Positions 6,001 through 12,000 of a stretch of 64,000 nucleotides of DNA are shown here, in pieces. Position numbers: made by a program. Every line of letters begins with the position of its first letter. Position 1 is the stretch's first letter. The stretch comes from a plasmid: sequence record NZ_CP145916.1, one strand, 5' to 3'.

Positions 6001-9000
6001 TGAATCTGCCGCTGTGGCTAACATTGTTGCTCAGCAAGCCTGTACCGTTGAAGCCGCTGCACAATTTGCCGGGGCACAGCCCCAGTCTGCCCTTTGGTGG
6101 TGTGCCGGGTCATGGGGAGGTCAATACCCTCTAACGGGCTCAGTCAGGACTATGGATACTCCACGAACCACTAGCCTCGCGGCGACTCGACAACTGGCCG
6201 TGGAGCATCGCCGTGGGCTTGCCTATCGCTCTGTGGGGAACGATGTAGCTTGCCGTGCAAAGATATACCCAACCATTCCAAAGCAACAATACAAAATGAA
6301 TATGTTTTACCCTACACCAGAGACAAAAAAGGGCCACAATATCGGTGAGTCACCATATAAATGGCAAGGGGGATCATTCCGCTATCCGACCGGTATGGGA
6401 CAGGATTCTGTGTATATGATTTTCCAGTGGACAGATTGCTGCCGAACTCTTTAACAGATGCCTGCGGCCAACGTTTTGCGGCTCAGAAAACAAGTTTCAG
6501 AACCGCAAAACGTTCCCAGTGAAAAGCGTAGGATGTAAAAAAAGCCCCGATAATTGGGGCTTTTTCATGTCTATAACGCTGCTGTTATTCTGGCTTGTCT
6601 TGCTGTTCAGCTTCTAAAACGACTGTCGGATTAGACTGAATTTCTAATTCCACATCCGTAGTTTCGGCATCGCTAACGGTTTGAACTACAGCAGGAATAC
6701 CGCTTCCTTCTCGGGAAATAGAAAGACCTTTTTCCTCAAGCTGGGCTATAGCATTTTTGGAAAGTTGTTGGATGGTCGCGCTCAGATTTTGGATGCTGCT
6801 AGTCAGACGGAACTTAGTGTCTTCAACCTCATCCGCTGGTGCCATCGCATTCAAATAGCCTTTATCCAGCAGTGTAATGGCTTTGTCATAACTACTGAAC
6901 ATGCGTAGGACTTTAGTCGCTTCTGGCGTGCGTGTTTTTGTTTCAAATTCACGCGGGTTCGTATATTTAACCTCGGCAACCTCAATCTCATTTTCTTCTT
7001 CCAACATTTTAGTGAGCATTTCAATACAGATATTGATCTCTCTCACCGGGACATCAATTACCTTATCTATCGCTTTTTTTGCCTCAGCAGCCGCACCACG
7101 GATACCCATACGCTCAATGCGTGTGGTGTTGATCATGATATTAAAAAGGGCTTGAGACACGGGATTAAAATGCCGGGTAAACAGCCGGATGCCTTCTTGT
7201 GTCTCTAAGGTTATCTTTAAATCAATTTCCGGGTTAGAGAACGGGGTTTTTTCCTCACGCCTCCGCCCTCGCCTGACTGGTGGTCGGTCAATACGGTTGT
7301 CATTAGCTCCGCCGTTTGGCCTTGTGTTAGAACGGGAATTACCCCTTCTGTTTGATCTCTGCTTTGGGGTTGCGTTGCCTTGGTTGCTAACATCAGCCAT
7401 GTATTCTTCCTCACGTTAAGATTCGTTAAAACATAAGTATTTAGGCACGCTGAATAGTAAAAGTCACAGAAAAAACAGGACGTTTTGCGGTCGAAAACTT
7501 CTTTTTTGTTGCAGCCATTAACTAACTGGATTAATCTGTTCAGACCTAGCTGATGGTACTCAGCACAACTTCCAGATATCTATTTGAATATCCTGATAAA
7601 CTTAGCGTGACCATACCGCACCCACAAAAAGACTCTCTTTTTGATCAGGATGTCCTACGCCTGTAAAACGGCAATCCGAGCACTTCCGACATGCTTCCTA
7701 GTCCTTTGACTAAGCTTGTCACTTTGCTACCCTTGCGAGGGTATTTTTGGTTCTCAATCCAAACCAATAAATTGAAACTTCCCATAACTTCCTGTGCGCT
7801 ACCCGCTACTGTGGCCGGACTTCGTTCTACACGACTCCTTCCTTCTATCTAAACATACCCCATAACTATGCTTCCTCACGTTGCATGGTGTTTTGGCGTG
7901 TTTTTAGTTCTGTGGCCGGACTTCGTACACTTTAACTGTCTATTAAATATATAAGGTATTAATTATGTTCACTGAAACAATGGCCCTGATCTCTATTGCT
8001 ATGTTTGCAATGCTGTTATATCGCGTTGAGTACATCCGGTTTTTAGCTCCACTCTGGATTGTTCTGTTTGTCGTGCTCAGTGGCAGAGCTGTCACCACAT
8101 ATGGTTTCTTTACTATTGTGGTGTTTGCGCTGCTGTTAATAGTATTTGTCCTCGACGCTATTCGAGTAAGCCGTAAAAAAGCTGAAAAAAATCGCGGAAA
8201 AAATGAAGATGATGATTCTGTCTCCATTTTTGACGAAGACGAAGATGAAAATGAGGATGAAAACTTATCCTCCCTGCCTCGCTTATCTGCCTCTGACGAT
8301 GAAGAAACACCTAAGCAAAAAACTAAGCCAAAAAGAACCCGAATCACTGAGTATCAAGGTACTCTGCTGAGTCATGGTTTTGCTCCGTACAACAACATCA
8401 TCGGTAATGACAAGTCTTACTTTGTTAATTGCGATGGTAAAACTGTTTGGGGTATCGGCTTAAAAGATGCGATTAAGAACTGTGGCGCTGAAAATGGTGA
8501 CACTATTCGCTTTTATAAAGAAGGTGAAGTTCGCACCAAAAAAGCCACCATTTATGATGATAAGGGAAACAAAACCGGCACACGCAATTTGTCTCAGGAC
8601 AAACGTCGTGGTGTATGGATTATGGAAGTTGTTTCAGACTAATTCCTGCCTAACTCTATTAAATGTACAACATTCTGCCCAGACATTACGTTGGGCACTT
8701 AACTTACAAGTGATTGTCTCTGTTCGTTTTTTTTAATGAACAGGCATGATCACAACAACCTCCTAAAAACCCGGCCACTGGCTGGGTTTTTTTTTGCCTT
8801 GACCAAAGCCACCCTCTCCTTTAATCTTGCTGATGCGGTTAAACCGCCTAACTTCCGGCTAACGCCCTTAAAGCACCTTTGCAAGCAACTTCGGCCACCA
8901 GCCAACCCGAACAAAAAACAGTTTTGTTCTCACGGCTTACTCACGTCTATACATACAGATTTCGATAGCCCGATGCCATTCATGGCTTCGGGTTTTTTTG

Positions 9001-12000
9001 TGCGTCGAGCAAGGTGTTTTTCCTCTTCTGAGGACATCGATGTGTTCAGGCATCTTCTCCTGAATGTTGTTCTTTATTATTTATTAATAAACAACTCCTA
9101 ATAACCTCTATCAAATTTATTAACTCTATTAAATCTATTAACTCTATTAAATATATCAAATATATAAGGATACTATCATGTATTACGGAACCCTCGTTTC
9201 AGAAGGTGTCATTGATCTCGATGGCTTCACCATACACAACGCTGGCGAATGCCCGTCCTGTAATGTTCTTGTCGACCACCGGCTTTATGAAAGCTGCTCG
9301 TATGGCTGCTTGAACCAGTGTCGCTCTATCGATTGTCCGGCTTGTGGTTATCATTCCTGTGATGATGATTGCTGCTCAGCTTGCCATGCTCGCTCAGTAA
9401 AAGAAGAGTCTGAGGAATTGGCTATTTCTTATGGAATAACCAGTAACTCACATGCGCTCTTGTTTTTAGCTGATATTGAAACTGAATTAATGATTTTATT
9501 TGCAAAGGCTAGAATTGATTTTCCAGACGCTTCTGCTGCTAACGCTGCACCCAGAAGTTATATGGAACCAATAACTGACGTAGCCATCCGCTTACACGAT
9601 TTCCACAAAATGCCCTACTCAGCATTACCTTCTTCAAAAGAAATTGTTTCCGTTTCATCCAGCCTCTTGAATGACATTTATATTCATCTTGGCTGGCCTG
9701 ATGGTTTTTAACTCATCCTTATTATCTTCCATAAATATATAAACTTATCGCGAGGTACATATTATGTTCTCTAAAGCCACTTTAATTGGTGTTGTCGGTC
9801 TTGAACCAAAATACAAACGCGCTGCTAATGGCAAAAAATCTGTAATTGCTTTTCGCATCGGTTGTGACGTATTAACAACATCCAAAAAAATAACTGAATG
9901 GTATTCAGTTAAGGCTTTTGGCTCTGTTGCTGATGATTTAATTAAGCATATAAAGGAAGGTTCAAATGTGTACCTCGAAGCCTCCATACGTTCAAGACGT
10001 TGGATCGCTGGTGGTGTTGAACGACATGGCATGGAATTTCATGCTTTTGTCGCACGCGTTATGCCTGAGCCTGTTGTCACTCATCATTCTCAAGCTGAAA
10101 CGCTCTCTGCACCTCACTCTGATGCAAGTCTTACCTTAGCCTTACCCTTCCCAGAAGATGAGGCTATTGTTAATGCTCCTGTACCAGCTCAGTCCATCCA
10201 GCCAGCTCATTCTGAAAAGCCCAAACAGCCGTCTTCTCCGAAACCAAAGGAGTTAACTGCTGATGAAGCTCGTCAGGCTGGTTCACGTTTTCGTCAAATA
10301 TTTGAAAGTCATAAACAACGTATCGCTGATTTAGCTACAGCTGCGCCTGCAACGGATGATCCTGCCCCTTTAAATCAAAGTAAGGCAATCGGTTTATCTG
10401 TTCAGCCTCCAGCTCCAGCTAATACACGTAAACTGCTCATTAAACATTGTAAATCTCCATCCTCTACGGAATTCCTCAGCACTGGAAATCCACACACGGA
10501 TGCTCTGTTAAATGCTCGTAACGCATTAATCAGACCAGTAGATAACAATGTAAATGAAATGGCAGGTTACGCGCATATTCGCGGAGATTAGTGAATGTTA
10601 TTCACTTTAATCCGAAGCCAATGAAGCCACTCCCTGAGTGGCTTCGGCTTTTATATGTCAGTGTTAAATTTATTAAATATATTAAATAAGGAATCTATCA
10701 TGGCTTACAACAATCAAAGTCGCAGCTCATACGATAATAAAAGTAACAGTAAAAAAGACACCAAAGCTAACCCGATGGTATTGCTTGATACTGCTACTCG
10801 ACATCTCGTTACACTCGAAAAAGAGTTTACTGTTGCAGCATCGTGGAACCCCTCTCTTTCCTTTGCGAAAGAAAGTGTTTTTGCGAAAAATGTAATAAAC
10901 AACAATTCGTACCTCACTGAATTGGCTGTACAGAACCCGCAGTCATTTGGAACTGCTTTCCTCCAACTGGCTACAAGCGGCCTCTCACTTGATCCAGCCC
11001 TTAAACTGGCTTATCTAGTGCCTAGAATGGGTCGTGTTTTTCTCGATGTGTCTTACATTGGTCTAAGTCGTCTGGCTACCGATGAAGGGCTCTGTCAGGA
11101 TATTGTTGTAGAGTTAGTCTTTACTGATGATTCCTTTAAATCTAATGGTCGTCGTCAAAGCCCTGAACACAGTTTCGATCCCTTCGCTGATAAAGGCCCG
11201 CTCCTTCTGACTTCAGAAGAAGAGAAGGCTTATACCGGTGAACGTCCAAGAGGTGTTTTTCGTGGCGTATATGTCGATTATCAAATGAAGGATGGCCGTA
11301 ATCTCGTTTACTTCCTTACGAGACAAGAATTAGCAGCCGCTCGTTCTGTCTCAGATTCATGGAAAAAAACAGAAAAACGCGCACAATCTCCGTGGACAAC
11401 ATTTCCGTGGCAAATGGTAAGAAAGTCGGCTATTAAGCAGACTATCCACCAGATCCCCGGTAATCGCACGCGTGTTGCTACCATTATCGATTATCTTAAC
11501 AAAGATGGCGGTGAAGGTTTCCGTGACACAAATGCTACTCCACTCCAGTCTGCCCAATATGAAATGTCTGCTCGTCAAGCAGCTGCAAATCATGATGTTC
11601 AGCCTGAAAACTCAGAACAACAACCTGTCTCATCTGGAAATGTTTACGAGGGACAAGTTGTTACCCCTGAACCTCAGCAGACACAAACTGATGTACAGCA
11701 CAAACCCGCGTCACAGGCATCAGAAGAACCTCAGCCACCCCATGCAGCTCAAAATTCTGAGTCTACAGATGGTGCTCAGGCAATGTCTGATATTCCCGGT
11801 GTCCGTGTTTATGCACAAAGACGCATCGCAAAAATCATTAAACGCGCCAGCATTCAAATGGCTTTTGAAACGTCAATATCTGTTATCAAAACTGAATTTG
11901 AATTTAATGAAACTGAAATTGCGTATGGTCTTCGCTTAATAGAGGAATCGCGCCGTAATATTCTTCAAGCAAAGTTAATACTTGGCATAGAGAATAATGA

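Follow-up and report, generated by a model that had tools for sequence, protein, structure and literature searches.

Among published systems, the nearest analogue of the elements described here is the set of rptI repeats found in the hde operon of IncC plasmids (Roy et al. 2020; PMC7498323). This operon comprises vcrx089-090 together with ssb-bet-exo and shields the incoming plasmid from restriction and CRISPR-Cas; its rptI repeats were shown to serve annealing repair by Bet/Exo and carry a predicted RNA structure over a ribosome-binding site. The ssb-bet-exo genes of IncC plasmids and of R391, a member of the SXT/R391 family, let the incoming element survive CRISPR-Cas, and the IncC vcrx089 ATPase, with vcrx090, aids survival of restriction in a new host. 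Here we analysed a stretch of plasmid DNA of 64,000 nucleotides (nt; sequence record NZ_CP145916.1, hereafter the window), in which two elements, copy A (8765-9064) and copy B (13432-13742), form direct repeats on either side of ssb, recT and a lambda-type exonuclease gene (exo).

Known leaders that contain a terminator include attenuators and promoter-proximal antitermination RNAs such as lambda nut, HK022 put and Bacillus EAR. The Frpo/ssi elements of F and ColIb-P9 are found in front of ssb and anti-defence genes. The CUP elements of the IncN plasmids pKM101 and R46 are operators for the repressor ArdK (Delver and Belogurov 1997, cited in PMC6289460), and the Reg576 system of p576, a Gram-positive plasmid from Bacillus, consists of heptamer operators and a ribbon-helix-helix repressor (PMC6294495).

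Results

Our analysis gives about an even chance that A and B are self-contained promoter-plus-leader, or attenuator, modules that head sub-operons of a cluster for plasmid establishment and evasion of host defences. Judged from the sequence, a promoter followed by a terminator-gated leader seems likelier than an autonomous small RNA (sRNA) gene, the less likely assignment, which had been made in an initial annotation of the window. That annotation described two elements with an upstream terminator, a TTGACC-17-TAATCT promoter and a strong terminator, and both were present as direct repeats with these parts. Each module runs in order through an upstream terminator (T0), the predicted promoter (P), a 5' hairpin (H1), about 165 nt of RNA, a second terminator (T1) and about 65 more conserved nt with two hairpins, H4 and H5 (Table 1). 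The repeat was seen as four collinear families (D4, D5, D6 and D9) of 79-88% ungapped identity, and the single insertion in the pairwise alignment, 15 nt in copy B, is a tandem duplicate of the first hairpin; a 290-nt repeat of such quality within 64 kb is far beyond chance. The predicted terminated RNA is about 165 nt long from A and about 178 nt from B. Two details had to be corrected: the first hairpin reads GCGGTTAAACCGC, not GCGGTTTAAACCGC, and the TTCAGG...CCTGAA hairpin (H5), which had been placed inside the ~170-nt stretch before the strong terminator, sits past it in both copies.

A 441-nt BLAST query around copy A was 100% identical to Rts1 from Proteus vulgaris (NC_003905.1), an IncT replicon with a MOBH relaxase and F-type mating-pair genes, and three Providencia or Escherichia plasmids equalled Rts1 in their match to this query. 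Relatives were gathered by BLAST, by tblastn with the exonuclease and by scans of genome and metagenome contigs, which recovered loci from four or five plasmid lineages. The promoter and overall conservation were read from a full-length MAFFT alignment of 20 sequences, and helix pairs were counted on neutral MAFFT segment alignments, leaving out the full-length alignment, in which gaps were misplaced near loops.

The hexamer TTGACC was invariant in 20/20 sequences and was followed by a spacer of 17 nt throughout, the sequence of which was free to vary, while only the T at position 1, the A at position 2 and the T at position 6 of the -10 hexamer were invariant. Since TAATCT fits the -10 consensus at only three of six positions, a simple promoter scan did not list it, and the support for the promoter comes from its conservation across relatives and not from consensus strength. 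Conservation that falls on TTGACC and TAnnnT and leaves a 17-nt spacer free would be the expected signature of a working sigma-70 promoter. Upstream of it, T0 is 1-10 nt away from the -35 hexamer in all copies, a distance that grows by up to 6 nt in some lineages, and its stem shows compensatory variants across the lineages of the same alignment (CCCGGCC/GGCTGGG, CCCTGC/GCAGGG, CCCAGC/GCTGGG and CCCGAC/GTCGGG); the T run of T0_A may double as an UP-like element. With T0 in this place, transcription arriving from further up would not reach the genes behind the element.

The predicted transcript is conserved as structure. Every hairpin, H1 included, was predicted separately in each lineage by per-sequence folds, and the fourth pair of H1 changes from G-C to A-T in the Providencia A copies. 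All eight pairs of H2 have changed on both sides, with 93.7% of cells paired, and 0/500 shuffles reached the observed values. In T1, 4/10 pairs have changed on both sides and 100% of cells are paired, and the corresponding counts are 3/7 for H4 and 3/6 for H5 (96.6% of cells paired for the two together). Controls in which the partners were slid by 1-3 columns were 27-57% paired overall and 31-52% paired for H4/H5, and none of 500 shuffles matched the observed pairing or covariation score. G.U cells (30) far outnumber A.C cells (2) across the helices, indicating that it is the gene-sense strand that folds. The check for covariation across homologous plasmids proposed in the initial annotation therefore gave compensatory changes in H2, T1, H4 and H5, and the suggested action at the RNA level is supported, in that the elements carry a conserved promoter and an intrinsic terminator and are under selection for structure on the gene-sense strand.

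This structure continues past T1. An outer helix (TTCGAY/GTCGAR) encloses the terminator with six pairs, 100% paired, and H4, H5 and the 3' arm of the outer helix all lie downstream of T1, so that selection on RNA structure there needs an RNA that has read through the terminator; the outer helix itself would form only in such an RNA. The element's own promoter is the only conserved one in front of the downstream genes, and none was seen between T1 and the next open reading frame (ORF). The stretch from the T run to H4, about 20 nt in copy A when read by eye, contains no TAnnnT hexamer, which makes a second promoter unlikely. The compensatory changes downstream of T1 and the lack of another conserved promoter are thus what points to read-through. 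The layout of an attenuator leader, with a promoter, an intrinsic terminator, a co-oriented ORF and no other conserved promoter, is found in all clades.

The elements hold up as non-coding, as initially proposed. No conserved ORF was found on either strand, since the candidates vary in strand, frame and length across lineages; none that could encode a small protein is kept in frame among the relatives, and comparison of A with B confirmed that the internal ORFs differ between the copies. Indels between lineages are not multiples of three, and the similarity of an EEKH... peptide tracks the conserved DNA and then shifts frame. The RefSeq hypothetical protein WP_176455173.1 of 121 amino acids (aa), at 8736-9101 over copy A, is matched neither on copy B nor in the relatives; this coding sequence (CDS) is probably spurious and not a gene. 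We also rejected a small ORF from an invariant RTG after H4, which has 5-45 codons, differs in frame and has lost its Shine-Dalgarno-like GAGGA in one clade. A search of the whole window against Rfam 15 gave 0 matches at gathering thresholds, and at E up to 5 the sub-threshold matches were centred on terminators and scored at most 25.8 bits, against thresholds of 39-99. The element family appears to be undescribed.

A third, much more diverged copy (copy 0, ~7509-7965) forms the leader of the operon's first gene, so that calling the element a pair is right for A and B and leaves this copy out. Its parts follow the order seen in A and B: promoter, 5' hairpin, YAACTTCC, hairpin, CTCA(C/G)GG, terminator-like hairpin with T run, GGTGTTT, AT-rich block and ATG; the hairpin is followed by TCAGG or CTCACGG. 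In a 3.1-kb search, nhmmer matches to copy 0 were collinear and weak (E 0.0016 in Providencia and 0.022 in Rts1). In SXT and IncC, an activator-dependent promoter and the 5' untranslated region of the operon's first gene have been mapped at this place (PMC4207636 Table S3; PMC4344509), and copy 0 may, by analogy, be regarded as an mRNA leader because of this position. Copy 0 contains six ACTTC(C/G) motifs, against 0.19 sites expected within 400 nt, and 10 of the 30 plus-strand ACTTC[CG] sites in the 64 kb fall in the three leaders (~1.1 kb). In the Citrobacter plasmid, AACATCC replaces AACTTCC in all three copies. A motif repeated in the leader in a strand-specific manner suggests a binding factor.

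Several further conserved sequences were observed around copy 0. The 14-mer GTGGCCGGACTTCG occurs twice in the first gene's leader (7811-7824 and 7912-7925); it is conserved with two occurrences in Citrobacter and one in Providencia plasmids, and the Enterobacter clade lacks it. Just past the terminator-like hairpin, GGTTCTCAATCCAAACCAATAAATTG (7745-7775) is the leader's best-conserved block in all four clades and occurs nowhere else in the window. An AGTCAC..AAAAACAGGACGTTTTGCGGTCGAAAAC block, conserved in plasmids of the Rts1, Citrobacter and Providencia type, lies at 7455-7500, between the AcaB-like gene and copy 0. It takes the place of the back-to-back activator boxes of IncC and SXT, and the divergent predicted starts are ~108 nt apart, as compared with 105 nt in pVCR94. 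The post-terminator block CGTCGAAnnnGGTGTTTT was considered as a general activator box and rejected, being present only in the two elements. Two more conserved blocks near copy 0 likewise occur only once in the window, so that no binding box for the FlhDC-like activator of Rts1 could be defined.

To follow the elements across relatives, we used a profile search, which placed A and B at the same two positions wherever the locus covers both and exo is at least 49% identical to that of Rts1. The lineages with both positions are Rts1, the Citrobacter pUL-CPE-01 group (its Klebsiella members as BLAST hits only), the Providencia/Moellerella/Morganella group and the Enterobacter/Kluyvera/Serratia group; three metagenome contigs also count among the relatives, and two metagenome contigs with exo 71-75% identical each span one of the two positions and carry the element there. 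The ssb-recT-exo segment of relatives is therefore bounded by the same repeats down to this level of identity, which answers a question raised in the initial annotation, while p06-1619-1 (exo 42%), pCAR1 (36%) and IncC (31%), more distant plasmids with the same genes, gave no significant profile match to the element. The bracketing of ssb-recT-exo by both copies stands, with the addition that the enclosed segment also contains a 177-aa ORF. In all relatives found, the element is immediately upstream of a co-oriented ORF and immediately behind a terminator.

Within a plasmid, A and B are 98% identical in Citrobacter, 80% in Rts1 with gaps counted (~88% without the indel), 59% in Providencia and 52% in Enterobacter, and the longest exact stretch shared by the two is 120 nt in the Citrobacter plasmid, 46 nt in Rts1 and at most 19 nt elsewhere. 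In Providencia and Enterobacter plasmids, the B copies are 63% identical to each other and thus closer than either is to its own A copy. The duplication is therefore old and predates the split of these plasmid clades; only in the Rts1/Citrobacter lineage were A and B homogenised, probably by recombination. Since they persist at 52-59% mutual identity in two clades, each copy is kept for its own local job, and an old duplication homogenised in one lineage only argues both against the ends of a cassette and against a function that needs alike copies.

Terminator-like signals are not confined to the modules. In the Rts1, Providencia and Enterobacter plasmids, almost all genes of the cluster have a GC-rich hairpin with a T-rich tail behind them, and terminator-like sites, counted as consensus matches only in these three clades, numbered 23-25 against 9-10 expected. 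Behind recT, the hairpin sequence (AACCGGC...GCCGGTT) is conserved in both Rts1 and Providencia. An AT-rich block, TCTATTAAATATATAA(A/C)TTAT, stands 10-25 nt ahead of almost all start codons in the cluster and might serve as a translational enhancer, as an operator array or as an unconventional promoter. The pattern of terminator-like hairpins and AT-rich blocks fits two readings: either polymerase is made termination-resistant at the leader, or the AT-rich block is an unconventional promoter and each gene is its own unit.

In the annotated record, the elements are located between traU-side and traF-side genes. The MoxR-type ATPase encoded after copy B is a homologue of IncC vcrx089 (36% identity, E 1e-62). 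The neighbouring small ORFs (225, 177, 126, 159, 126 and 127 aa) gave nothing informative in Pfam, PHROGs or NCBIfam, and the 177-aa ORF (orf177) and the 126-aa ORF that follows copy B (orf126) are not paralogues. The coordinates of all features are given in Table 1.

Table 1. Features of copies A, B and 0 and of the surrounding cluster; positions refer to the window unless a relative locus is named.
Feature	Position	Strand	Details
T0_A, terminator of upstream unit	8765-8798	+	stem 8765-8791 and nine-T run; ends 1 nt before -35
P_A, predicted promoter	8799-8827	+	TTGACC 8799-8804, 17-nt spacer, TAATCT 8822-8827; predicted start ~8834-8835
H1_A	8835-8847	+	hairpin GCGGT-TAA-ACCGC at predicted transcript start
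Conserved, mostly unpaired segment of A	8848-8898	+	two ACTTC(C/G) motifs: CTAACTTCCGGC 8848-8859, AACTTCGGCCAC 8887-8898
H2_A	8909-8929	+	8-bp hairpin GAACAAAA/TTTTGTTC, then conserved block TCACGG
T1_A with outer helix	8961-9009	+	T1 8967-8999: stem 8967-8994, T run 8993-8999
Outer helix around T1_A	8961-8966 / 9004-9009	+	TTCGAT / GTCGAG
Post-terminator leader A	9013-9064	+	GGTGTTTTT, H4, H5; conserved block GTGCGTCGAG..GGTGTTTTT follows T1
H4_A	9021-9034	+	TCCTC/GAGGA
H5_A	9045-9064	+	TTCAGG/CCTGAA
T0_B	13432-13458	+	after exo; stem 13432-13451 and nine-T run
P_B, predicted promoter	13462-13490	+	TTGACC 13462-13467, 17-nt spacer, TAATCT 13485-13490; predicted start ~13497-13498
H1_B, tandem pair	13498-13525	+	GCGGTTAATCCGC 13498-13510, GCGGTTAAACCGC 13513-13525
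ACTTC(C/G) motifs of copy B	13526-13537, 13565-13576	+
H2_B	13588-13608	+
T1_B	13646-13677	+	outer helix TTCGAT 13640-13645 / GTCGAA 13682-13687
Post-terminator leader B	13691-13742	+	GGTGTTTTT, H4_B 13699-13712, H5_B 13723-13742; AT-rich repeats up to ATG 13804
Copy 0, diverged third copy	7509-7964	+	leader of 225-aa ORF (7965)
Copy 0 promoter (predicted)	7509-7514, 7532-7537	+	TTGCAG, 17-nt spacer, TAATCT
Copy 0 5' hairpin	7549-7564	+	GCTGA..TCAGC, then ACAACTTCC
Copy 0 terminator-like hairpin and T run	7728-7748	+	then GGTGTTTT, AT-rich block, ATG
Divergent gene	6585-7400	-	after traC ... traU; named AcaB-family regulator in relatives
225-aa ORF	7965-8642	+	operon's first gene
177-aa ORF (orf177)	9178-9711	+	between copy A and ssb
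ssb	9764-10591	+
recT	10655-12232	+
exo	12295-13422	+	lambda-type exonuclease
126-aa ORF (orf126)	13804-14184	+	next after copy B
MoxR-type ATPase	14262-15293	+	followed by DUF3150 protein, then VWA protein
AT-rich 9-nt repeat array	9096-9177	+	TATTAACTC / TATTAAATC; family D1; reaches Shine-Dalgarno and ATG of 177-aa ORF (9178)
AT-rich blocks (i)	7930-7950, 9096-9177, 12258-12280, 13750-13790, 14199-14253
AT-rich blocks (ii)	15365-15390, 16865-16890, 18735-18767, 20062-20090
Terminator-like hairpins, window	10622-10646, 12237-12257, 15336-15355, 16839-16855
Terminator-like hairpins, relative locus L003	9738-9758, 12820-12835, 14151-14170
Terminator-like hairpins, relative locus L007	4319-4340, 5949-5966, 8997-9016, 10418-10440

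Three observations concern other parts of the window. The VWA gene (16904-18730) is an intact ORF of 608 aa, where the annotation of NC_003905.1 (locus L001, 17165-18441) has a shorter ORF followed by an IS2 transposase gene, and the IS2 insertion may be missing from the window's Rts1 relative or version. Within this gene, imperfect tandem repeats of TCTGAT/GATTCT-type units with 9-30 nt spacings (17621-17767) would encode a Ser/Asp/Asn-rich low-complexity stretch. Finally, a 74-nt direct repeat of 93% identity is found at 45069-45142 and 63626-63699, 18.5 kb apart, and near its second copy, at 63840-63952, there are four 21-nt iterons (GGTGTGTGCTGAGGGGAAAAA), possibly those of a replication origin.

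Discussion

If A and B act as terminator-gated leaders, T0, for which sequence and covariation were observed, would end transcription arriving from upstream, and the sigma-70-type promoter, placed one base after it and recognised by its conservation pattern, would start an RNA. The 5' end of this RNA would present a small hairpin, the ACUUC(C/G) motifs and a second hairpin, with the hairpins backed by covariation, and about 165 nt on, T1 would stop most polymerases and free a short RNA. Polymerases that pass T1 would produce a longer leader, in which the terminator hairpin is clamped by the outer helix and followed by the two conserved hairpins, an AU-rich stretch and a ribosome-binding site. 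The read-through mRNA would encode orf177-ssb-recT-exo after A and orf126, the vcrx089-like ATPase, the DUF3150 protein and the VWA protein after B. Our preferred guess is that read-through is set by a factor recognising the 5' hairpin and the ACUUC repeats.

Several points weigh against this reading. We infer promoter activity, termination at T1 and read-through alike from the sequence. T1 looks efficient, with an 11-bp GC-rich stem and 5-7 U, and no conserved antiterminator pairing emerged in consensus or single-sequence folds, so that read-through would be either leakage or factor-dependent. The outer helix is conserved by invariant bases and two one-sided changes that preserve pairing, with 0/6 double compensations, and a targeted search gave weak homology for copy 0 (E 0.0016-0.02). 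In addition, almost all genes of the cluster have a conserved AT-rich block in front and a terminator-like hairpin behind. Should the AT-rich block be an unconventional promoter, transcription of the genes after A and B could do without the promoter of the element, and A and B would be free-standing.

This last point leads to the sRNA interpretation of the initial annotation, which we regard as unlikely, if worth keeping in mind. According to it, A and B would be free-standing genes for trans-acting RNAs of ~165 nt (A) and ~178 nt (B) that end at T1 and act by base pairing or protein titration, with the downstream genes transcribed from elsewhere, for which the AT-rich block before every gene might be a separate promoter. 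A predicted promoter and an intrinsic terminator of their own are indeed present and conserved, the terminator covaries, and together they enclose a unit of the usual sRNA size with a canonical 5-7 U tail, which T0 would insulate from upstream transcription. The conserved unpaired blocks CUAACUUCCGGC and AACUUCGGCCAC are possible seeds, and UUCGGCCAC can pair over 9 bp (one G.U) with GUGGCCGGA, part of the 14-mer found twice in the first gene's leader; the Enterobacter clade, from which the 14-mer is absent, also differs in this sRNA block. However, the functional sequence does not end at the terminator, given that H4 and H5 show compensatory changes past it and a 6-bp helix spans it. No conserved promoter separates T1 from the ORF, the element is invariably followed directly by a co-oriented ORF, and the same architecture recurs in the leader of the operon's first gene, all of which argue against autonomous sRNA genes. 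Complementary sites in the window were at or near chance (8 vs 3.4 expected and 12 vs 9.4 expected), and a sliding duplex-energy scan for trans targets returned only self-complements and implausible long duplexes.

The terminator-like hairpins of the cluster also raise the idea, which we consider rather improbable, that the modules are loading sites for an undescribed mechanism of processive antitermination. On the nascent RNA, a plasmid or host factor would bind the 5' hairpin together with the repeated ACUUC(C/G) motifs, and polymerase would then resist both T1 and the later terminator-like hairpins, so that the whole cluster would be expressed in a burst, for example just after entry into a new host, while only the ~165-nt RNAs would form without the factor.

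In an explanation at the level of DNA, the direct repeats would be kept for single-strand annealing repair by the plasmid's own RecT/Exo and the transcription signals would be secondary. According to PMC7498323, IncC Bet/Exo repairs Cas-induced breaks via conserved intergenic repeats of the same operon, and its authors propose that Bet/Exo systems evolved together with repeat sets; the exact A/B stretches in Rts1 and in the Citrobacter plasmid, whose copies look homogenised, would suit such a role. In the Providencia and Enterobacter plasmids, however, the copies are only 52-59% identical and share at most 19 nt exactly, yet every promoter position and hairpin is kept, many of them by compensation, a pattern that selection for repeat identity would not give, and joining of A with B would delete the recombination genes themselves. 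We therefore hold annealing repair to be a poor candidate for what maintains the elements.

Even less probable is a signal in single-stranded DNA during conjugative entry or lagging-strand synthesis, either a Frpo-like promoter or a priming (ssi) site. As with Frpo/ssi, A and B precede ssb and anti-defence genes, their hairpins are conserved, the DNA folds better than shuffles (z -4.4 for the plus strand and -3.4 for the minus strand), and G.T pairs are tolerated in DNA too. Against this, folding either strand produced short local hairpins only and not the long hairpin needed to rebuild a duplex promoter. In these folds the promoter region stays unpaired; the -35 and -10 hexamers lack a complementary arm, and hairpins with T runs are typical of RNA terminators. 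For Rts1, oriT has been placed between orf251 and orf252 (PMC10838148), and on the basis of this published position we take it to be far from the elements. A Frpo-type single-strand promoter was accordingly rejected from the folds of both DNA strands, and by the published position oriT does not adjoin the region. The view that A and B are the ends of a mobile cassette with ssb-recT-exo, also proposed initially because direct repeats flank a functional gene set, is scarcely credible. Synteny of the repeats and of the genes between them holds in all relatives found, no integrase, transposase or other recombinase gene is adjacent, identity of the copies is down to 52-59% in two clades, the third copy is located beyond the limits of such a cassette, and p06-1619-1, pCAR1 and IncC have the same genes without these repeats.

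If it is true that A and B gate the genes behind them, the modules would be a control point for plasmid establishment and an undescribed family of cis-regulatory RNA absent from Rfam. If they are mere leaky terminators behind constitutive promoters, the result would be a useful annotation, with a spurious CDS removed and transcription units defined, and biologically ordinary. The family makes a clean test case, since each plasmid holds three copies, covariation is strong, and the promoter-terminator layout is simple and can be transferred to reporters. Rts1-type plasmids (IncT and related MOBH) carry carbapenemase and other resistance genes into Providencia, Proteus, Klebsiella and Citrobacter.

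Comparison with known systems

The known systems resemble the modules in different respects. In the p576 system, as here, several promoters of establishment genes share repeated features, and the idea of transient expression after entry applies to both; unlike A and B, the Reg576 system involves no leader RNA or terminator (PMC6294495). The resemblance to the CUP elements is one of arrangement: according to PMC6289460, these are repeated upstream promoter sequences before establishment and anti-restriction genes of a conjugative plasmid, whose backbone is unrelated to that of Rts1. In contrast to CUP, the conserved part of A and B would be transcribed and is structured, and there is no sign of a repressor site in their promoter, since the spacer is not conserved. 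With the Frpo/ssi elements of F and ColIb-P9, A and B share that they are ~300-nt repeated elements before ssb and anti-defence genes, and they differ in having what looks like an ordinary duplex promoter and no long imperfect hairpin that rebuilds one.

The organization into promoter, structured RNA, intrinsic terminator and genes is common to A and B, attenuators and the nut, put and EAR RNAs. As in nut, put and EAR, a 5'-proximal hairpin stands beside a conserved linear motif, and further terminator-like hairpins follow in the downstream operon. The differences are that no antiterminator fold of the kind used by attenuators was found for A and B, that they have no Rfam similarity and the neighbouring small ORFs no Pfam, PHROG or NCBIfam match that would mark a cognate factor of the nut, put or EAR type, and that, unlike any of these, the module occurs three times in one gene cluster.

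The IncC repeats are the nearest in position, as direct repeats in the intergenic spaces of a homologous operon (vcrx087 ... vcrx089-090, ssb-bet-exo, DUF3150, VWA). In the IncC plasmid pSD_174, repeats of ~125-155 nt occur in the leader of the first gene, ahead of the ATPase gene and immediately behind exo, and are probably members of the published rptI set. We observed near-identical copies of ~125 nt at 2225-2370 and 7068-7190 of the locus taken from this plasmid (L006) and a diverged copy at ~1195-1335, which end in a hairpin enclosing the Shine-Dalgarno sequence just before ATG. Unlike A and B, the IncC copies have neither the TTGACC promoter nor a hairpin with T run and lie inside one polycistronic mRNA. 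A profile of the 20 A/B sequences gave nothing significant against the IncC locus in nhmmer (best E 0.12, a terminator), and the short words common to the IncC and Rts1 repeats (TTTTGTTCTC, CGATAGC and GGTGTT) were not significant. Because the IncC repeats have no promoter or T-run terminator and show no significant similarity to those of Rts1, the two sets are not one family and are best described as positional, and probably functional, analogues.

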